Source: an uncultured Candidatus Rokubacteria bacterium
Lineage (GTDB): Bacteria > Methylomirabilota > Methylomirabilia > Rokubacteriales > CSP1-6
Reading direction: 5' to 3'
DNA length: 64,000 nucleotides
Assembly: GCA_963789955.1 (NCBI GenBank)
Contig: CAWBMV010000017.1
Coordinates: 99,716-163,715, forward strand
In this document: piece by piece, positions 39,133 through 51,767 of the stretch
Layout: each line of letters begins with the position of its first letter
Numbering within the stretch: the first letter of the stretch is position 1
Position numbers and translations under genes: made by a program
The notes under the pieces: model-generated
Seen by the model: the letters and a program-made list of their open reading frames with translations, nothing else
Databases searched by the model: none
What the model was told of the DNA's origin: nothing

Positions 39133-39136
<4 letters not shown>

Positions 39137-40367
39137 ACATCTGGCAGAGCGTCCGTATCGCGGGCCGCGCCCTCCGCGTCAACAAGCTGCGGAGCGCCCT
39201 GACGATGCTCGGCATCATCATCGGCGTCAGCGCGGTGATCGCCATGGTCGGCGTCGGCTCCGGCGCCCAGGCCCGCGTCGCGGAGCAGATCCAGAGCCTC
39301 GGGTCGAACCTGATCATCGTGCTGTCGGGCAGCACGAACAGCGCCGGCGTCCGGCTCGGCATGGGCAGCCAGCTCACGATCTCGGAGGACGATGCCGACC
39401 GCGATCGCGCGAGAGATCCCGAGTGTGCAGGCGGCCGCGGGATCGGTCCGGGGCAATGCGCAGGTCGTCTACGGCAATCTCAACTGGGCCACCCAGATCC
39501 AGGGCGTCACGCCCTCGTACTTCGAGGCGCGCGACTGGCCCGTCGACGAGGGCCGTCCGGTGCTCCAGGAAGACGTGGACGGCGCGACCAAGGTCGCCCT
39601 GCTCGGCCAGACGACGGCGCTCAACCTGTTCGGGGAGTCCGACCCTCTGGGCCAGATCATCCGGATCAAGAAGGTCCCCTTCACGGTGATCGGCATTCTC
39701 TCGCGCAAGGGACAAAACTCGTGGGGGCAGGATCAGGACGACATCATCCTGGTCCCGCTCTCGACGGCGAAGAAGAAGGTGCTCGGCGTGAGCCAGGCCA
39801 ACGCCCGCGCGGTCGGCTCGATCTCGGTCAAGGTGCGCCCCGGCGAGGACATGAGCGAGGCCGAGGATCAGATCCGCGGGCTCCTGCGCCAGCGCCACCG
39901 GCTCCAGCCGTTCCAGGACGACGACTTCTGGCTCCGGAACCTTTCCGAGATCCTCCAGACTCAGGAAGAGTCGTCGCGGGTGATGACCTATCTGCTGGCG
40001 GCGATCGCGTCCGTCTCGCTGCTGGTGGGCGGCATCGGCATCATGAACATCATGCTGGTGTCGGTGACCGAGCGCACGCGCGAGATCGGTCTGCGCATGG
40101 CGGTCGGCGCCCGGCGCCGGCACATCCTGCTGCAGTTCCTGATCGAGGCGATCACGCTCTCGCTGATCGGCGGCATCGCCGGCATCGCGCTCGGCGTCGC
40201 CGGCTCCGAAGCGATCAGCTATTTCGCCGAGTGGCGCACGCTTGGTCGCGCCCGAGTCGATCCTGATCGCGTTCGGCTTCGCCGCGGCGATCGGCATCTT
40301 CTTCGGCTTCTACCCGGCCCGCAAAGCCTCGCGGCTGGATCCGATCGAAGCGCTGCGCTACGAATAG
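39133..40367 (+). CDS. MacB/FtsX-family ABC permease (frameshifts near 39395 and 40245)
   Basis: [55 protein letters not shown]. Confidence 0.9.
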
Positions 40368-40418
40368 CCCCGCGCAGAATGGGGCGCCGCGCCCGTCTCC
40401 TGCTATTTTGGAGGGGCG

Positions 40419-40887
40419 ATGGCCCGTCGCGCGCCGCCGCCGGCGAAAGACTCGAAAAGCCTCCAAGCGCAAGACGCGCCGGATCCGCGTCACGCTCCCG
40501 CGGCCCACCCGCGCCGAGACGCTCCTGCTGACCCTCGCGAAGGATCTCGCCGAGGCCCCGCTCGACCGCGCGCTCCGAAAGCTCGCCGACGCGTTCACGC
40601 CGACCGCCGACCTGCCTCGCGAGGTCTACGCGGCCTGGACCAAGAGCCGGCGCGAGAAGACGGCGTCACTGGCCCTCAGCTGGGCGCGCGAGCAGGTACG
40701 GCTGAGCCTCGAGGAGACCATCGCGCGCGCGCCGAGGGCGCGCCCGGCTCTCGGGCTCGCGCCCGACACCCTGGCGTGGCTCCTGCTCGCGGCGTGCGAG
40801 GCGATCGCCCACGAGCCGCCGTCGGCGGTCGCCGATCGCGTTCGGACGGTGCTCGAGCTCAGCGGTCACGCCGCGCCGGGCGGCTGA
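40419..40887 (+). CDS. Hypothetical protein with an Arg/Lys-rich N-terminus and a helical TetR-C-like body (probable early frameshift)
   Basis: GGAGGGG RBS before ATG 40419. The 40408 frame reads RRRRRKTRKASKRKTRRIRVTL...WAREQVRLSLEE...LAWLLLAACEA. Confidence 0.55.
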
Positions 40888-41314
40888 GCGCTTCCAGGAG
40901 CAGCACCGCGGCGCCCGCGAGCATCGTGAGGCCGTTGAGCTGGACCGATGACCGGTGGGCGAGCGCGAACGCGGTGTCGTCGCGGGTGCGCCGCGCCGAT
41001 TCGGCGCGCGGCAGGACCACGATCGAGGCCCAGAGCAAGAGGCCGAGCATCGTTCCGCAGAGCGCGACGCCGGCGAGCGCGCGCCCGCGCGGCCTCATGC
41101 CCGACACCGTCAGGACCGCGGAGGCGGTCAGCGCGATCGCGCACAGGACGATTCCCCAGTCGTAGTAGCGCGGGAGCACCGCGGATACGAGCTGGCCCGC
41201 GACGCCGCGGTCGATCACCCGGAAGGCGAGCGGCGCGACGGCGAACGAGAAGAACGTGCTGATCGCGAGCCAGCCGGCGATACAGACCACGACGAGTACG
41301 CGCAAGATATCCAT
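40859..41314 (-). CDS. DUF4149/TMEM205-like membrane protein
   Basis: Four TM helices; FFSFAVAPLAF...AGQLVSAVLPRYY...FALAHRSSVQLN. Confidence 0.75.
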   Translation of the reverse strand: MDILRVLVVVCIAGWLAISTFFSFAVAPLAFRVIDRGVAGQLVSAVLPRYYDWGIVLCAIALTASAVLTVSGMRPRGRALAGVALCGTMLGLLLWASIVVLPRAESARRTRDDTAFALAHRSSVQLNGLTMLAGAAVLLLEALSRPARRDR

Positions 41315-41362
41315 CGATCCCCCTTTGGGCGACGCCGTCTCCCGTTCGGCCACGCGGCGACC

Positions 41363-42693
41363 CTACCGTCGTCCCGCGGCGCGATCCAGCTGGGCCAGCG
41401 CGATGCGATAGTCGGCGAGGGCCTGCGGCCTCGGTATTCTGCGCCTGCGTGAGCGCGAGCTGGGCGTCGGTCAGCTCGAGGATCGTCCCGACGCCGACGT
41501 CGAACCGACCCTGGGCGAGCCGGAAGTTTTCCTGGGACGACGCGATCAGCACGCGCGCCGCCTGGATGCGCTCCTGGGCGGCCTCGACGGCGATCTCCGC
41601 CTGCTCGAGATTCTGGATGAGCGTCAGCTCCGCGACCTTGACGCGGGCGTTGGCGGCGCCGTGAATGGCCTTCGCTTCGTCGTAGGCCGCGATCAGATTG
41701 CCGCCGTCGAAGATGTTCCAGGTGAACGCGAGCCCGAGCGACCAGTTGGGATTCAGCTCGAGCTGCGATCCGCCGTAGGAGCCGGTCCCGCTGACATTCG
41801 GCAGGAAGTTGCGCGACGCCACCTGGACCCCCGCCGCGGCGGCCGAGCTCTGCAGCTTCGCCTGCCGGTACTCCGGGCTCTGCCTGAGCGCTTCCGCCCG
41901 GAGCGCCGCCCGGTCGATCGTCGTCGGCTCGTATTCGAGATTGTCCTTGATCTCGGTCGGAGTGCTCGCGTCGATCGCCATCGCCGTGTTGAGCGAGACC
42001 CGCGCGATCTTGAGCGCGTTGCGCGCGTTGATCAGATCGACCTTCGCGTTGGCCACGTCGACCTCGGCGCGGACGGCCGTCGACAGCGGTTGGGTCCCCA
42101 CGTCGACGAAGCCCTTCGCCGACGCCAGGTTGAGCTCGGCGCGCTCGAGCGCCTGCTCCTGCACGCGGATCAACCGCTGGGCCAGCAGGATGTTGGTGTA
42201 CGCCTCCTTCACCGTGAGCGCGATCAGCTGGCGCTGGAGCTCGACGCCTTCCGCCGACACCTCGGCGAGCTTTCGCGCCACCTGCGTGGTCGCGAGCGTC
42301 TTGCCGAAGTCGAAGAGCAGCTGCGACAGCTGGACCTGCGCCAGGAACGTGTCGGCCGGCTGGCGGCTGATCTGCACCGCGGCGACGCGGCCCATTGTCA
42401 ACGTCGTGGGGATGGTGCTGGTGTTGCTGCGTGTCGCCGTCACCGAGCCCGCGAGCTGCGGCAGGAGCGGCGCGAACGCTTCACGGACCCGCGCCCGCGC
42501 GGCCGCGTAGTCGTAGAGGGTGGCCTGGATCGCCGGCTGAGCCTCCAGGGCGATGGCGATGCACTCCTCGATCGAGAGCGCTTGCCCGGCGACCCGCGGG
42601 GCGGCCGGGACGGGCGCCGCCTGAGCGAGCGCGACCGCGGGCAGGCTCGCAGACGAGGAGGAGTGTCAGAAACGAAGCTCGCAGGGTCATCAT
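41363..42693 (-). CDS. Second TolC-family protein (frameshifts near 42640 and 41425)
   Basis: LSIEECIAIAL, FLAQVQLSQLLFDFGK, GRFDVGVGTILELTDAQ. GGAGG RBS. Confidence 0.88.
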
Positions 42694-44980: not shown

Positions 44981-45849
44981 CGTCCGGGCCGACGCCGCAG
45001 TCGCCTCAGCACGGCGAGATTGCGGAGATCGGCCGCAGGTTCGGGCTCTTTGGGCGTCTCCAGGACCTTCGGCACCCGGACGAAGCGGCGGTCGTTCAGC
45101 AAGAGCCGGAACGGCGCCAGTCCGAGACGCCCGCGGCCGATGTTCTCGTGACGATCGAGCCCTGAGCCGAGCGGCGCCTTGGCGTCGTTCAGATGGAACG
45201 CCAGCACGCGGCGACGCCCCACCGTGGCCTCGCACTCGGCCATCGCACGGTGGTATCCGGCCTCGGTGCGGAGATCGTAGCCGGCGGCGAAAAGATGGCA
45301 CGTGTCGAGACAGACGCCCAGGCGCTCCGGTCGAGCGGCGCGCTCGAGCAAGGTCGCGAGCTCGCCGAACGTCCGGCCGATCGTATTCCCCGCTCCCGCG
45401 GTGTTCTCGAGCGCGACCTTCACGCGGTAGCCCGCGGTGCGCGCCAGCGATTCGTCGAGTGCGGCGGTGACCCGAGCGAGCCCGGCCTCCAGGCCGGTGC
45501 CCATATGAGAGCCGGGATGGATGACGACGCACGAGAGCCCGAGCGCTTCGGCGCGCTCGAGCTCGTCCGTGAACGCGGCCACCGCCTGTGACCACAGGCC
45601 GGAGTGCGGGTTCCCGAGATTGATGAGGTAGCTCGAGTGGGCGAAGACGTGCCGGATCACGTGCGTCCGGCGCGCCGCCCGGAACGCCCGCACCTCGTCC
45701 GCCTCGAGGGGCCTGGCGGCCCACTGGCGCTGGTTTTTCAGAAAGATCTGGACCGCGCCGCAGCCGACCGCGCGGCCGCGCTCGAGGGCGCGATGGAGGC
45801 CGCCGGCGATGGACATGTGGGCCCCGATCTCGTCGCGGCGCTGTGTCAT
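44977..45849 (-). CDS. nfo: Endonuclease IV
   Basis: Motifs GAHMSIAGG, HSSYLINL, HPGSH, LENTAG, DTCH, HLND, DRHENIG, LETP. Confidence 0.95.
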   Translation of the reverse strand: MTQRRDEIGAHMSIAGGLHRALERGRAVGCGAVQIFLKNQRQWAARPLEADEVRAFRAARRTHVIRHVFAHSSYLINLGNPHSGLWSQAVAAFTDELERAEALGLSCVVIHPGSHMGTGLEAGLARVTAALDESLARTAGYRVKVALENTAGAGNTIGRTFGELATLLERAARPERLGVCLDTCHLFAAGYDLRTEAGYHRAMAECEATVGRRRVLAFHLNDAKAPLGSGLDRHENIGRGRLGLAPFRLLLNDRRFVRVPKVLETPKEPEPAADLRNLAVLRRLRRRPGR

Positions 45850-45883
45850 GGCGGTCACGGTAGCACTCTGCTATTCTGCCTCC

Positions 45884-46855
45884 ATGAAACCTTTCACGGT
45901 CCCCTCGGCGTACACGACGACGTTCACCCTCGAGTACGGCGTCGCCGAGGCCGACATGCGGCGACTCTACGAGAACGCCAAGCGCGATCAGTGGAACGCC
46001 TCCAAGGACGTTCCCTGGGCCGACCCGTTTCCGTCGGACGGGCGCGTGATCGCGGACGAGCTGATCGACATCTACGGCAGCCCGCTCTGGGACAACCTGC
46101 CGGAAGCCGATCGCGTCGCGTTGAATCGCCGCATCGCCGCCTGGCGGCTCTCGGTGCTGATGCACGGTGAGCAGGGTGCCCTGCTAGCGTGCAGCCAGAT
46201 GGTGGACATCGTGCAGGGGGCCGACGAGAAGTTCTTCCAGGCCACCCAGGTGGTGGACGAGGCGCGCCACAACGAAGTGCTGAGCCGCTACCTCACCGAT
46301 CGTCTCGAGGGTCTGACGTACCCGATGCCGGCGAACGAGAAAGACCTCTTCGACTCGATCCTGTCGGAGAGCCGCTGGTACCTGAAGACGATCGCGCTGC
46401 AGCTCGTGGCCGAGACGTTCGCCGTCGCGCTGTTCAAGATGATGAGCGAGAGCGCCCGCGATCCGGTCCTCGGCACGATCTGCAAGCGGATCCTCCAGGA
46501 CGAGTCGCGCCACATGGGATTCGGCATGCTGGCGCTCCCCAAGGTGGTGAACGAGGCGTCGGCGAGCGAGCGGCGCGAGCTCGAGGACTACACGTGCTTC
46601 GCGCTCGAGAAGACCTTGATGGGCTTCTTCCCGCTCGAGGCCTACCAGGACGTCGGCTTCACGCCGAAGCAGATCGAAGAGGTCAAGCGCTATCGGCGCG
46701 AGACGGCCGCGGCGAACGACTACGCGCCGTTCCGCAAGTACTTCAAGAAGGACATGCACGGCGCGATGGTGTCGAACCTCGCCCGGCTCGGCCTCCTGAC
46801 CGAGCGCGTGCGGCCGCGGCTCGAAAAGCTCGGCGTCAGCCTGCCGGCGAGCTGA
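45884..46855 (+). CDS. Ferritin-like diiron protein (AurF/oxygenase-like)
   Basis: HGEQGAL...DEARH...VAE...DESRH diiron ligand pattern. Confidence 0.8.
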   Translation: MKPFTVPSAYTTTFTLEYGVAEADMRRLYENAKRDQWNASKDVPWADPFPSDGRVIADELIDIYGSPLWDNLPEADRVALNRRIAAWRLSVLMHGEQGALLACSQMVDIVQGADEKFFQATQVVDEARHNEVLSRYLTDRLEGLTYPMPANEKDLFDSILSESRWYLKTIALQLVAETFAVALFKMMSESARDPVLGTICKRILQDESRHMGFGMLALPKVVNEASASERRELEDYTCFALEKTLMGFFPLEAYQDVGFTPKQIEEVKRYRRETAAANDYAPFRKYFKKDMHGAMVSNLARLGLLTERVRPRLEKLGVSLPAS

Positions 46856-47306
46856 CCGGCCCGACCAGCTCGCCGAGCCGTAAGGTTCGGTAGCGCCACA
46901 TCTCGGCGATCTGCCGGCGCACGAGCATGGTGTGCGCCACGCGCCCGAGCGGTCCCAGCGGCAGCCGATACGTCACCCGATCTTCCACCCACGTCCCGCC
47001 GCCTTCCTCGAGAAAGCGGTGGCGATGCTCCCAGCGCGCGTACGGACCGCGCACCTGCACGTCGACGAATCGATACGGCGGATCCCACTCGCGGATGAAC
47101 GCGCGCCAGCTCACCGGCACGCCGAGCCAGGACATCCTGAGATCGACGACGGCACCGGCCGAGAGCGCCGGCGGGCCGGCGACGATCGCGAGACGAAACG
47201 CCGGCGGTGTGAGGAGCACGAGGTTCTCGGCCGCGGCGAAGAACGAGAAGACGTCGGGGCGCGCCCTGGCGAGCCACACGCGCGACTCGAGGATGTAGTC
47301 GGCCAT
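46836..47306 (-). CDS. SRPBCC family protein
   Basis: VFSFF...ENLVLLTPP...FVDVQVRGPYARWEHRHRF...DRVTYRLP. Confidence 0.85.
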   Translation of the reverse strand: MADYILESRVWLARARPDVFSFFAAAENLVLLTPPAFRLAIVAGPPALSAGAVVDLRMSWLGVPVSWRAFIREWDPPYRFVDVQVRGPYARWEHRHRFLEEGGGTWVEDRVTYRLPLGPLGRVAHTMLVRRQIAEMWRYRTLRLGELVGPVSSPAG

Positions 47307-47329
47307 GACGCGCGGGCTATGATAGGCAG

Positions 47330-48340
47330 GTGCCCGGAGCGAGTCAAACACGCGCCTACGTGACTCTGCTCCTGAGCGTGGCGCTGTGGGGAAGCTTTCC
47401 GGCCACCGCGAAGCTGGCGCTCGTCGATTTCCCGCCGTTTTTTCTGGCCGCCGTCCGCTGCACCGCCGCGTCGTGCTTCCTGCTCCTGCTGCTGGCGCGC
47501 TCGTCGAGCGACACGATCCGCGGGCTCGGCCCGGGCGCCGCCGGCACGTTCCTCGTGCTGGGTGCGGCCGGCATCTGGGGCTCGATGCAGTTCACGTATC
47601 TCGCGATCTACAACACGACCGCCGGCAACGCTGTCATCCTCCAGGCCGCCACCCCGGTCATCGTCGTGCTGATCGCGCGCTTCTACCTGGGGGAGCGCCT
47701 GCTTCGCGTGCAGTGGCTCGGCGTCGCCGCCTCGGTGCTGGGCGTCCTGCTGGTCATCACGCGCGGCCCCTTCGCCATGCTGCAGCCGGCCGAGCTGCAC
47801 TCCGGCGACTTCATCACGCTGCTGTCGCTCTGCAGCTGGGCGGTCTATACGGTCTACGGCAAGCGCGTGCTCGCCTCGTACTCTCCACTGCTCGCGACGA
47901 CCGCCGCGTACATCATGGGCACGTTGCTGGTCCTGCCGACTGCCGCGATCACGGCGCCGCTCTTTCCCACGCCGCGTCTGGCGTCGCTGACGGCGTGGAC
48001 GATCGTCTTCTACCAGGGCATCCTCGGCGCGGTCGCTCACATCTGGTGGTACGAGGCCGTGCTGGTGGTCGGGCCGAGCCAGGCCGCGATCTTCACCAAC
48101 CTGCAGCCGATCATCGGCATCGTCCTCGCCCCGCTCTTGCTCGGCGAGCGCATCGGCATCTGGCACGTCATCGGCACTCTCTTCATCCTGGCCGGCGTCG
48201 GCCTCACCACCCGCCCCTTCTCCCCGCAAATCCCCCGCCGCCCCAACCCGCACCACCACGCGACCAACGCACAGAGCCCGACAATCGATCCCGAACTAGA
48301 CCGCAAGAAGACCCCGGACAGAACCGCCACGACGATTTGA
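47330..48340 (+). CDS. DMT/EamA family transporter
   Basis: About ten TM helices; LWGSFPATAK, FYLGERL, FTNLQP, LLLGE. Confidence 0.88.
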   Translation: MPGASQTRAYVTLLLSVALWGSFPATAKLALVDFPPFFLAAVRCTAASCFLLLLLARSSSDTIRGLGPGAAGTFLVLGAAGIWGSMQFTYLAIYNTTAGNAVILQAATPVIVVLIARFYLGERLLRVQWLGVAASVLGVLLVITRGPFAMLQPAELHSGDFITLLSLCSWAVYTVYGKRVLASYSPLLATTAAYIMGTLLVLPTAAITAPLFPTPRLASLTAWTIVFYQGILGAVAHIWWYEAVLVVGPSQAAIFTNLQPIIGIVLAPLLLGERIGIWHVIGTLFILAGVGLTTRPFSPQIPRRPNPHHHATNAQSPTIDPELDRKKTPDRTATTI

Positions 48341-48379
48341 AGGCGCAGGGGTGAGAGCTCTGACGCCGAGGGTTAGAGA

Positions 48380-48523
48380 GCCGGTGCGGCGGGAGGGCGG
48401 CGTGGGGGGTGCGATCAGCGGAGTGGGACCCCCTCGTCCCGCCCGCGGCTCGCAGAGCCGCGAATCAGGCGAGTGGGTGACGGAGCCGATCGCACCCCCC
48501 GCGCCCTCCCGCGCCGTACCGGC
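48380..48523. repeat. About 144-bp REP/MITE-like element with long imperfect terminal inverted repeats
   Basis: GCCGGTGCGGCGGGAGGGCG..GGGGGGTGCGATC pairs with GATCGCACCCCCC.GCGCCCTCCCGCGCCGTACCGGC; internal hairpin CGCGGCTC-GCA-GAGCCGCG. Confidence 0.7.
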
Positions 48524-48549
48524 GAAGCTACGCAGCGGGGACGTGAGAG

Positions 48550-49019
48550 CTAGACCGAGTTTGCGAATCTCGGAGAGGATCTTGTCCGGCTCGGGCAAGC
48601 TCCCCTTTGCCGTACCGCTCGATGAACCGGATCTTGCCCTGCTTGTCCACGATGAAGGTCGCGCGCACGTTCGCGTTCCACTCCGGCCAGAAGACGCCGT
48701 AGTCCCTGGCCGCCGTGCGGTGGACGTCCGAGAGGAGCGGATAGCGGCTGATGCCGACGGACTTGGCCCAATTGTCGTGGCTGAACGGGCTGTCAGTGCT
48801 GATACCCAGCACCTGGGTATTGACTGCCTCAAAGTCGCCGATGCGCCTATCGAAGGCAGGCATGCAGGTGCTTCAGCCCGGCGTCCAGTCGAGCGGATAG
48901 AAGAGGATGACGACGTTCTTGCCGCGGAATTCGGCGAGGCCGACCTCCTTGAGCCCGATCGTCCTCAGCGTGAAGTCGGGCGCGGTGTCACCGACGTTCA
49001 GGACTTTGGTCTCAGTCAA
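48550..49019 (-). CDS. Selenocysteine-containing peroxiredoxin (AhpC/TSA, AhpE-like); in-frame TGA at 48873-48875; C-terminal frameshift near 48600
   Basis: TTG 49019 gives MTETKVLNVGDTAPDFTL...VVILFYPLDWTPG-TGA-STCMPAF...VLGISTDSPFSHDNWA...YPLLSD...RATFIVDKQGKIRF...LPEPDKILSEIRKLG. Confidence 0.88.
48789..48863 (-). promoter_or_regulatory. Candidate SECIS / recoding structure 3' of the UGA
   Basis: Hairpin ATGC-CT-GCCT-TCGAT-AGGC-GCAT begins 9 nt after the UGA. A second hairpin is ATACCCAG-GTG-CTGGGTAT. Confidence 0.55.
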
Positions 49020-49945
49020 TCCGGGAACCCCCCTTTCGCGAATTTTCGCGGTGTGCGGTCGTTCATCCTAACACGCGAATCCGCGACCCGTGCCGGGGGC
49101 TTGCGCACGGCGGCCCATGCCCGGTTCCGTCGGCTCTCGAGCGCGGCGACGTCGACGCCGAGAAACGCGGCGGCCGTGACGACCCGCTTGGTCTCCCACA
49201 AACGCGCGAAGCGCTCGGCGTATCCCGCGTCGCGCAGCGCGTGATGATCCATGATGACGCGACACCCCGTCGCTTCGATCACGCGGATGAGCTGGTCGAT
49301 CGCGCGCTCGATCGCGTCGCGGCCGACGTCGCGCTCGAGATAGGACACCGGCCCGGACAGATACAGGAGCGTCGGGCGCTGCTGGATGAGATACGCCGCC
49401 GCGACGGCGGACGCCGGGCCCTGGAGATCCGAGGCGAACACGAACCGCTCGCGCTCCGCCGGGTCGACGATCGTCAGCGCGACGATCGAGCCGAAGGGCG
49501 AGCCGTCGACGCCGTGCGGCAGCGGAGGCGAGACGCAAAGCTCCAGGTCCGCCTCCCGGCGGTGAGCGCCGTCGGCGCGCTCGACCTTCGCCTGCCCGTC
49601 GAGCGCCTTCCACAGCGCTTCCCCGCGCTGAGCCTGTTTGCCGCTGATCATCCGGCGCGGGTCCTTGGCGAGCACGATCCGCCCGGCATACGACACGGGA
49701 TCCGACCGGAAGTGGTCCTCGTGGTAGTGGCTCACGAAGACGAAGCTGGAGCGCGACGCGTAGGCCGAGATCCGATCGTTCGCCCGGCGGAGCGCTTGCC
49801 ACTCGTCCTCGGTCGGGGGCAACCCGAAGCGCGCGGGTGCCAGGGTCGCGCCGGGATCGATGAGGATCCCCGTTCGCCCGACTTCGACGTACGTCGCCAT
49901 CGAGCGGACGCCGAGCGATTCGGCGGCGAGCGGAATGACCTTCAT
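49016..49945 (-). CDS. Metallo-beta-lactamase-fold hydrolase (UPF0282-like)
   Basis: MKVIPLAAESLGVRSMAT, IDPG..LAPARFGLPP, SHYHEDH, PLPHG, ASDLQGP, DHHALRD. Confidence 0.82.
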   Translation of the reverse strand: MKVIPLAAESLGVRSMATYVEVGRTGILIDPGATLAPARFGLPPTEDEWQALRRANDRISAYASRSSFVFVSHYHEDHFRSDPVSYAGRIVLAKDPRRMISGKQAQRGEALWKALDGQAKVERADGAHRREADLELCVSPPLPHGVDGSPFGSIVALTIVDPAERERFVFASDLQGPASAVAAAYLIQQRPTLLYLSGPVSYLERDVGRDAIERAIDQLIRVIEATGCRVIMDHHALRDAGYAERFARLWETKRVVTAAAFLGVDVAALESRRNRAWAAVRKPPARVADSRVRMNDRTPRKFAKGGFPD

Positions 49946-49961
49946 GCGCGATCGGGTGCCG

Positions 49962-50723
49962 CTAGATGCAGCGGCCGCCGTCCACCTCGACGCACGTGCC
50001 GGTGATCATCGCCGCATCGTCCGAGGCCAGGAAGACGGCGGTTCGCGCGAGATCCTCGGGCTGGTTGAGACGGCCGAGCGGAACCGTGGCGACGTAGCGA
50101 GCGCGGCTTTCGTCGTCCACCGCGCGCTTGCCCATGAACGCCGGCAGCATCGGGGTGTCGGTCGCGACCGGCGCGATCGAGACGACCCGCACGCCATCGC
50201 CGGCGGCCTCGAGCGCCAGGCTCTTGGTCAAGGTGACGACGGCTCCCTTGGACGCCGCGTACGCCTGCATGCCGGGCCGCGGTCTGATGGCGGCGGTCGA
50301 CGCCGTGATCAGGAACACCCCGCGCCGCTGCTTCTTCATGATCGGCAGGGCGTACTTCGCGCCGAGCCATACGCTCTTGACGTTGACGGCCATGATCCGG
50401 TCGAAGAGCGCCTCGTCGACATCCTCGACGTTCTGGGGCGACTGCGGGACACCGGCGTTGGCGAAGAAGACGTCGAGCCGTCCCCAGGTGGCCACCGCCT
50501 TCTCCACGACCATCTGGTTGTCGGCGGCGCGGGTGACGTCCGCCCGCACGGCCACCGCCTGACCCCCGGCCTTCTCGATCTGCTCGACCGTGGACTTGGC
50601 GCTCGCTTCGTTCAGGTCGACCACGACCACACGCGCCCCTTCCTTCGCCATCGCCAGCGCCGAGGCGGCGCCGATACCCGAGCCCGCGCCCGTGATCACC
50701 GCGACCCTTCCGTCGAGTCTCAT
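49962..50723 (-). CDS. Short-chain dehydrogenase/reductase
   Basis: Motifs TGAGSGIG, NAG, YAASK, VDGG. Confidence 0.93.
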   Translation of the reverse strand: MRLDGRVAVITGAGSGIGAASALAMAKEGARVVVVDLNEASAKSTVEQIEKAGGQAVAVRADVTRAADNQMVVEKAVATWGRLDVFFANAGVPQSPQNVEDVDEALFDRIMAVNVKSVWLGAKYALPIMKKQRRGVFLITASTAAIRPRPGMQAYAASKGAVVTLTKSLALEAAGDGVRVVSIAPVATDTPMLPAFMGKRAVDDESRARYVATVPLGRLNQPEDLARTAVFLASDDAAMITGTCVEVDGGRCI

Positions 50724-50747
50724 CTCCGAGCCTCCAAGCTTCCGTCG

Positions 50748-51767
50748 TTACAGGGCTAGTTCGGCCATCGTGCGAGCCGCCAGGCGGTCGCCCGCCACCA
50801 TGAGCGTCGTCACGCCCGAGGAGCGCCACTCGCTCACGAGCTCGCGGATCCGCTCGCGCGGACCACACAGCGCGACCTCGTCCACGAGAGCGTCGGGTAC
50901 GGCCGCTTCGGCTTCCGGCTTGCGGCCGGCGAGGTAGAGATCCTGGACCTTCTTCGCCGCCTCCTCGTAGCCGTAGCGGCACGCGATGTCGTTGTAGAAG
51001 TTGCGGCCGCGCGCGCCCATGCCGCCGACGTACAACGCGAGCCTGGCCTTCACGCTCGCCCGGCACGCGGCGACGTCGTCACCGACGACCACCGCGACCA
51101 TCGGCATGACGTCGAAGGCCGCGGGCGCCGCGCCGCGGGCGCTGAAGCCCGCCTGCAGCCACTCGCGGAACATCGTCATGCGCCGGACCGAGAAGAACGT
51201 CGGAATCCAGCCGTCGGCGATCTCCGCGGAGAGGGCGACGTTCCTGGGGCCGACCGCGGCCAGGTAGATGGGCAGGTCGGCCCGGCCGTGCAGAATCGAC
51301 TTGAGGGGCTTGCCGAGGCCCGTCGCGTCGGAGCCCGCGTAGGGGATCTGGTAGTAGTCGCCGCGATGCTCCACCGGCTTCTCCCGCCGGAGGATGTCCC
51401 GCACGATCGCGACGTACTCGCGCGTGCGCTGGAGCGGCCGGCCGAACGGCTGGCCGTGCCATCCCTCGACCACCTGGGGTCCCGACACTCCGAGCCCGAG
51501 CCGGAAGCGGCCGCCGGAAAGACCGTCGAGCGTCATGGCGGTCATCGCCGTCGCGGCCGGCGTGCGCCCGGCCATCTGCATGATCCCGGTGCCGACGTGG
51601 ATGCGCGTGGTCAACGCCGCGATCCACGCGACGGGTGTCACGGCGTCGGAGCCGTAGGACTCGGCCGACCAGATCGAGTCGTAGCCCAGCCGCTCGACCT
51701 CGCGGACGAGATCCATGTCGAGCGTCATGCGAGCACCCGAGTAGCCGAGGGTGAGCGCTAGCCGCAC
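50748..51767 (-). CDS. LLM-class F420-dependent oxidoreductase
   Basis: [45 protein letters not shown]. Confidence 0.9.

Follow-up and report, generated by a model that had tools for sequence, protein, structure and literature searches.

A selenocysteine peroxiredoxin gene of Rokubacteria with a predicted SECIS hairpin about 60 nucleotides past the UGA

Results

A peroxiredoxin gene with a UGA at the peroxidatic position

The window analysed here, a 64,000-nt stretch of a contig from an uncultured Candidatus Rokubacteria bacterium, contains on its minus strand (48550..49019) a peroxiredoxin (Prx) gene of the AhpC/TSA family, encoding about 155 residues with an in-frame UGA at residue 49. The frame from 49019 to 48550 translates as LTETKVLNVGDTAPDFTL...FYPLDWTPG*STCMPAF..., the TGA being its single internal stop, and ends at a true TAG stop (48550-48552, minus strand). 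The open reading frame track began this gene at the ATG at 48863. The first-pass annotation had extended the frame upstream to a TTG at 49019 that overlaps the stop of the preceding gene (TTGA), and the frame is indeed open to that point. Translation likely initiates at this TTG (49017-49019, minus strand), which lies next to an SD-like purine run (49028-49036); an ATG, GTG or TTG was found at the matching position in most of the 20 relatives whose starts were compared. The stretch 48250-51200 yielded neither a sigma-70 promoter nor a terminator. Metatranscriptome contigs of relatives corresponded to parts of the Prx gene; contigs cannot show expression.

The encoded protein matched Pfam AhpC-TSA (PF00578) over residues 9-132 (E 3.3e-39, 134.1 bits against a cut-off of 26). 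Pro42, Thr46, position 49 and Arg119 matched the Prx active site, and in alignments with solved Prxs position 49 fell on the peroxidatic Cys and Arg119 on an Arg. These alignments agree with the earlier placement of the sole in-frame stop (TGA, 48873-48875, minus strand) at the peroxidatic Cys of the PxxxTxxC motif, where it is predicted to encode selenocysteine (Sec; PxxxTxxU). The conserved active-site Arg119 (48663..48665, minus strand) was invariant in one alignment and was R in 77/77 sequences. An AlphaFold model of the protein, built from 13 sequences, had a mean pLDDT of 56.9 and was too poor for fold or geometry to be read from it.

The gene upstream (49016..49945, minus strand), annotated as MBL-fold in the first pass, overlaps the Prx gene by 4 nt and is PRK04286/UPF0282-like, its match to NCBIfam PRK04286 lying below the cut-off. 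It adjoined the Prx gene in 78/80 close loci and 21/22 distant loci. An AurF-like diiron protein, an SRPBCC-type protein, an EamA transporter and an SDR are encoded nearby (45809-48340 and 49962-50723). Of the 80 close loci, 41-70 had homologues of these neighbours, which were rare in distant loci, so that the PRK04286-like gene is the sole stable neighbour. Past the Prx stop lies a GC-rich, palindromic, REP-like intergenic element (48341-48555), with nine further BLAST hits in the genome.

The TGA is not an assembly error

The assembly is rich in single-base indels, and lone stops or frameshifts therefore need confirmation from relatives. Apparent frameshifts were also seen in the window at 39133-40531 and 40866-42443, and at the N-terminus of selD on contig C6. 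Two indels lie at the 3' end of the Prx gene itself (48553..48596, minus strand): a surplus base at 48596 that contigs of two independent soil runs (X1 and X2) do not have, and a second indel just before the TAG. Relatives have a C-terminal tail of the GELPxPDKILxExxKLx type. We therefore rejected the last ~16 residues read from the window, ARAGQDPLRDSQTRS, as a frameshift artefact, and conclude from the 3' indels and the tail of the relatives that the true protein has 155-156 residues.

The TGA itself was crossed with 0-1 differences by contigs of independent soil runs (X1 and X2, 48792-48909; X3, 48792-48907), and the best matches across the 61 genomes searched all had exactly one TGA (49/49, E <= 1.1e-47), which argues that it is not an assembly error. 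Together with the retention of TGA in most close loci described below, these data led us to reject a sequencing error or a pseudogene.

The UGA is almost certainly read as selenocysteine

Sequence comparison with relatives supported the earlier claim that Sec occupies the peroxidatic position. Residue 49 was aligned with either TGA or Cys, the result that the first-pass annotation had named as a check: among the 80 best-matching of 529 genome loci, whose titles were mostly Candidatus Rokuibacteriota/Methylomirabilota, 77 had TGA and 3 a Cys codon (TGC/TGT). Metagenomes provided 8 further Cys loci. The Cys versions had about four origins on the second tree, from which a frameshifted locus (L037) was left out. 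In two of the three Cys-type genomes tested selB was still present, and a TGA paralogue was retained in the remaining one.

The organism had also been proposed to use the Sec trait, and selA, selB, selC and selD were all found in its genome (6.77 Mb, 68% GC). The genes for tRNA-Sec(UCA), SelA and SelB lie on contig C1 and that for SelD on contig C6, all above curated cut-offs; SelB is a normal 627-residue factor with winged-helix domains, and the SelD gene likewise contains an in-frame UGA. A self-BLAST plus motif screen, which was crude and gives a lower bound, identified at least 35 selenoprotein candidates. Of the 30 candidates scanned, 28 had a match spanning the TGA to a redox or selenoprotein family, in addition to six Prx genes and SelD; the other two were ordinary stops. 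A dicodon read-through screen, which 68 TAG, 51 TGA and 17 TAA passed, picked up mainly neighbouring genes in the same frame and was dropped. The candidates comprise six Prx, TlpA/AhpC-like, AhpD/CMD- and YciW-related, DsbA and rhodanese proteins, as well as UGSC (six), PrdB-like (two), FdhA-type (two), SelW, PDO, ArsC-related, CYCXC and SelD proteins; example sites are C1:604271, C1:621440, C25:9684, C34:114116, C22:21546, C22:541858 and C1:591195. A Methylomirabilota metagenome-assembled genome has 63 predicted selenoprotein genes (PMC13188914, citing Deng et al. 2026); the set found here is the same in kind, and large for a soil bacterium. Two Sec-Prx genes on separate contigs (L147, C1:604271; L148, C32:1751) are 99% identical and may represent a strain duplication in the bin, whose contamination is 5.1%.

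The UGA could instead be a true stop in a split or dead gene, a sequencing error, or a codon read as Cys, for example by a SelC*-type tRNA. Such readings can point to the many indels of the assembly, two of them inside this gene, and to protein databases, which contain mostly the ~103-residue downstream piece; UGA-to-Cys tRNAs do exist in some bacteria (PMC13582414). They are nevertheless very improbable: TGA is kept in nearly all close loci and in several families, the protein being conserved on either side of it, the independent contigs agree on it, and no UCA tRNA was found other than a canonical tRNA-Sec adjoining selAB. Unusual ARAGORN calls ('atgg' and a 94-nt Gln tRNA) resemble false positives more than SelC*-type tRNAs. 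We infer that the UGA at residue 49 is almost certainly decoded as Sec.

A short peroxiredoxin with a lineage-specific cysteine

The protein is a genuine and otherwise ordinary member of a known family, since Sec-peroxiredoxins have been described before. Sec-Prx (PF00578, TxxU/PxxxTxxU) is listed as an experimentally verified selenoprotein family (PMC13188914) and is counted among the selenoproteins (PMC1794560), and 43 Sec-Prx genes were reported from the Sargasso Sea (PMC1088965). The experimentally verified PrxU of Eubacterium (Peptoclostridium) acidaminophilum likewise has a UGA at the peroxidatic position of PxxxTxxU. The present protein, at ~155 residues, differs from PrxU in lacking its C-terminal extension and in having a Cys at +3 (TxxUxxC). 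None of the NCBIfam curated cut-offs was reached by this Prx, including those of the PrxU equivalog NF040737 (75.3 against 270) and the AhpC (Prx1) equivalog TIGR03137 (68.5 against 272).

AhpE proteins are short and have no Prx1-type C-terminal arm carrying a resolving Cys. The AhpE-like assignment made in the first-pass annotation is plausible from the length of the protein and the reach of its alignment. In its favour, the present protein falls in the length class of Mycobacterium tuberculosis AhpE (Rv2238c) and other short Prx of AhpE/BCP size, full-length Cys homologues being equally short (155 residues), and the alignment with AhpE is longer (residues 5-141/143) than those with Prx1 chains (to 133-135). 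Against it, AhpE, which has Cys in place of Sec, scored slightly below Prx1-type chains (E 1.3e-21 against 1.7e-23; profile 89 against 103 bits), and no NCBIfam family could be assigned.

The Cys at +3 (Cys52; 48864..48866, minus strand) is a candidate resolving Cys. It was present in 80/80 close loci and replaced by Glu in 21/22 distant orthologues, a difference explained by one change on the second tree. Any resolving role for Cys52 would therefore be lineage-specific; it is possible that, in the close clade only, this residue resolves oxidised Sec49. No paper on AhpE plus CXXC was found. The orthologues with Glu at +3 (L133, L134, L136-L144) often have another Cys, in a GISCDS strand (11/18), as an alternative resolving candidate.

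A conserved hairpin is predicted 53-71 nt past the UGA

A 7-bp hairpin is predicted at +53..+71 past the UGA (48802..48820, minus strand). Its pentaloop, GGUGC in the window (48809-48813), has the form G60-G61-U62-N-N and places a G at +61; the hairpin is the putative SelB-binding SECIS. Codon choice in this region was strongly skewed. Codon +18 was AAT in 68/68 Asn codons and codon +23 was GGT in 74/77 Gly codons, whereas elsewhere in the same genes AAT made up 23/440 and GGT 44/793; codon +19 was ACC in 70/70 Thr codons and codon +22 CTG/TTG in 71/71 Leu codons. This codon usage far past the UGA reveals an RNA-level constraint.

In agreement with such a constraint, the distal stem was unbroken in 102/109 orthologues, as compared with 0.5 expected from a synonymous redraw. 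Counting unique sequences, it was unbroken in 93/100 TGA windows and 3/8 Cys windows, and G60, G61 and U62 were found in 100/100 windows. The hairpin has the loop and stem of a canonical SECIS (a 3-9 nt loop with an early G, a 4-16 bp stem). Covariation was observed at pair 55-69 (AU 79, GC 14, GU 5), where A55-U69 has changed to G55-C69. Overall, 93.7% of cells were paired, as against 30-40% in slid controls; the shuffle test is inflated by relatedness among the sequences, and the three pairs that changed on both sides were no more than shuffles gave (460/500). The four central pairs are invariant and uninformative because the loop sits in codons for [QE]-V-[LV]-G, a strand motif conserved among Prx. 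One Sec-Prx with a proximal-type hairpin (L161) forms the stem around a non-G loop, and codons alone can therefore yield the stem.

In the unconstrained fold of the window's own sequence, the distal loop was paired with +1..+8, and the distal hairpin appeared once the first 10-12 nt were kept from pairing, as they would be inside a ribosome. The pairing of the first 8 nt past the UGA (48865-48872) with the distal loop (48808-48815) was also seen in some orthologues. It could be due to chance or could act as a switch that hides the loop until the ribosome covers these nucleotides.

Loci that have reverted from Sec to Cys are a weak test of the hairpin, and their pattern was mixed. The hairpin was unbroken in three of them (L064, L121, L124) and G61 was changed in others (L092/L122). 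The hairpin was eroded in the largest Cys clade, but a pair was already missing from the TGA sisters of that clade. An independent-pairs test of the four Sec-to-Cys events on the tree was not significant, the events being too few.

A predicted spacer hairpin separates the UGA from the distal hairpin

A second hairpin is predicted between the UGA and the distal stem, at +14..+49 (48824..48859, minus strand). Its pair 15-48 showed compensatory change (CG 65, GC 21, UA 5, UG 3 of 100 windows). The spacer was closed in 89/89 distal-type genes, as opposed to 1/22 Cys Prx and 0/11 Sec-Prx genes of the proximal type. The 89 distal-type genes comprise 40 sampled from orthologues and others that include 21 divergent genes chosen by the distal pattern alone; in these the spacer was closed in 21/21, with 9.9 expected. 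The apical loop of the spacer varied in sequence and length and mostly had no early G, and the inner helix of the spacer was 75% paired.

The distal hairpin recurs in several peroxiredoxin subfamilies

Both hairpins were also present in a second Prx family, about 35% identical and with two copies in the genome. Here the distal pair 54-70 was C-G in place of U-A in 19/25 windows, and the GGU loop was found in 24/25, the 25th being a mismatch; the 25 include one wrong regex match (L189), which was left out of the Cys-paralogue and proximal-loop, loop-signature and spacer-closure counts. In three Prx1-type Sec genes the distal stem was unbroken with G-C at 58-66, while it was unbroken in 0/22 Cys Prx paralogues. 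These three genes (L158, L197, L198; Prx1/AhpC-type, from three genomes) have TGA, and Cys is found in all other phylum members identified, including the 73% identical L199. The distal hairpin is present in the Sec copies and absent from L199, possibly reflecting a recent Cys-to-Sec gain that used a ready-made motif.

Searching for a TGA followed after 52 nt by the hairpin gave matches in 100/151 genomes of the class, and a reversed control gave 0. The 30 matches that were translated were all Prx-like, with both the spacer and distal folds and with very different spacer sequences. The hairpin pattern alone had 7 hits in the present genome, of which 3 had a TGA 52 nt upstream, all in Prx genes. 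Looking beyond Methylomirabilota yielded little. For a genome labelled as another phylum, the relatives showed the same gene types. A viral scan with the pattern produced one chance hit in AT-rich, non-Prx DNA, and no viral relatives were found. Plasmid hits were distant; the two examined were a Cys Prx and a prxU with a proximal hairpin.

Other Sec-Prx paralogues, L145 (G000, C1:621314-621739) together with L156, L157 and L162-L165, have a canonical proximal hairpin. The active site of the L145 type is altered to YCYDWGGI-U-TPE, without the Pro and Thr of PxxxTxxC.

The SECIS-type loop is distal in these genes and mostly proximal elsewhere in the genome

Published bacterial SECIS elements have 16-37 nt between the UGA and the apical loop (PMC13188914; PMC10778597). 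The bSECISearch model describes a 4-16 bp stem capped by a loop of 3-9 nt that begins with G followed by G/U at the first two positions (PMC13188914), and the SelB-bound loop of the Escherichia coli SECIS contains G23/U24 (PMC8659212). In the present gene the loop begins at +60, a spacing of 59 nt that is outside this range, and a qualifying proximal loop was found neither in this gene nor in most orthologues. As in the bacterial consensus (E. coli fdhF), the hairpin lies within the coding region 3' of the UGA; it differs from the consensus in this spacing and in the intervening hairpin of conserved structure. By comparison, the hairpin of P. acidaminophilum prxU is proximal, its AGUU loop lying at +17, within the published range, and that gene has no unbroken distal hairpin.

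The other selenoprotein genes of the genome provided an internal reference. A hairpin with an N-G-[G/U]-N-N loop and its G at +18..+24 was found in 24/32 of them, in 18 with a pairing probability >0.5, and none had this loop signature distally at >0.5. The signature was derived from these same genes and is absent from 8 of the 32. This Prx gene and the two second-family copies had the signature nowhere proximally, and all three had it at +61; random Cys codons had it at +61 in 0/400 cases. Among orthologues it was proximal in 1/107 and at +61 in 102/107. Since the distal loop is of the same type as the proximal SECIS candidates of this genome and is present where a proximal one is missing, SelB likely binds at the distal hairpin.

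One alternative is a SECIS at the canonical distance: SelB would bind at the tip of the first, long hairpin (apical loop, ~+29..+34), leaving the distal one a purely auxiliary part. That loop does lie within the published 16-37 nt (PMC13188914) and the first hairpin is conserved with a compensatory change. A looser published rule, a G-containing loop at 16-37 nt, predicted a SECIS in 15/107 orthologues and 12/25 second-family genes, where G occurs in the first two loop positions. This alternative is nevertheless unlikely, given a loop that varies in sequence and length and an inner helix paired to only three quarters, and given that the loop signature of this genome is placed distally in almost every orthologue.

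Alternatively, Sec may be inserted while the distal hairpin serves to pause ribosomes, to protect the mRNA, or as one arm of a junction recognised by SelB. Both hairpins are under selection, the distal one is kept in several Cys orthologues, and its loop can pair with +1..+8 in some sequences, all of which would fit such roles. We consider them quite unlikely: the loop is the SECIS-type pentaloop of this organism on a hairpin that occurs where the proximal one is missing, the hairpin is absent from all 22 Cys Prx paralogues, and one Cys lineage altered exactly G61. The reading that we prefer is that the GGU-loop hairpin about 60 nt past the UGA is probably the SelB-binding SECIS, which the spacer would bring to normal distance.

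Discussion

Collectively, these comparisons point to a distinct class of bacterial SECIS in which a GGU-loop hairpin lies 60 nt from the UGA, behind a spacer hairpin free of sequence constraint, and SelB would read the folded distance. The same class would be used by at least three Prx subfamilies across Methylomirabilia, which would have recruited the [QE]-V-[LV]-G codons as a SelB site. We put the probability of this reading, both parts together, at roughly two in three (0.68). Atypical bacterial SECIS classes are known (PMC13188914, PMC9312934, PMC12013277), and the passages concerned with them do not describe this layout. Our literature searches turned up no account of a bacterial SECIS that is distal or built of two hairpins, although subscription journals or supplements may contain one.

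We propose the following mechanism. While the UGA occupies the A site, the ribosome would cover the 10-12 nt that follow it. The region +14..+49 would form a single long hairpin with an unconserved loop, and +53..+71 the 7-bp stem with its G-G-U-N-N loop. Looping out ~36 of the 61 nt would leave the loop G at an effective +25, near the +18..+24 usual in this genome, and an ordinary SelB-GTP-Sec-tRNA complex would be delivered. The product, with Pro42, Thr46, Sec49 and Arg119, would be expected to reduce H2O2 or organic hydroperoxides. In the close clade Cys52 may resolve the oxidised selenium, after which thioredoxin-fold or AhpD-type partners would re-reduce the enzyme.

The layout of the SECIS is more important than the protein itself, which belongs to a known family; the Sec-Prx described here is one more such gene split in two by gene callers. 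If confirmed, the layout would relax the 16-37 nt rule behind bacterial SECIS prediction and would give a concrete structure to one of the 'atypical' SECIS classes left undefined in reviews. Natural compensatory variants make the question of SelB spacing directly testable. The arrangement also suggests that bacterial selenoproteins may be expressed with the SelB loop ~20 codons past the Sec, clear of the active-site residues.
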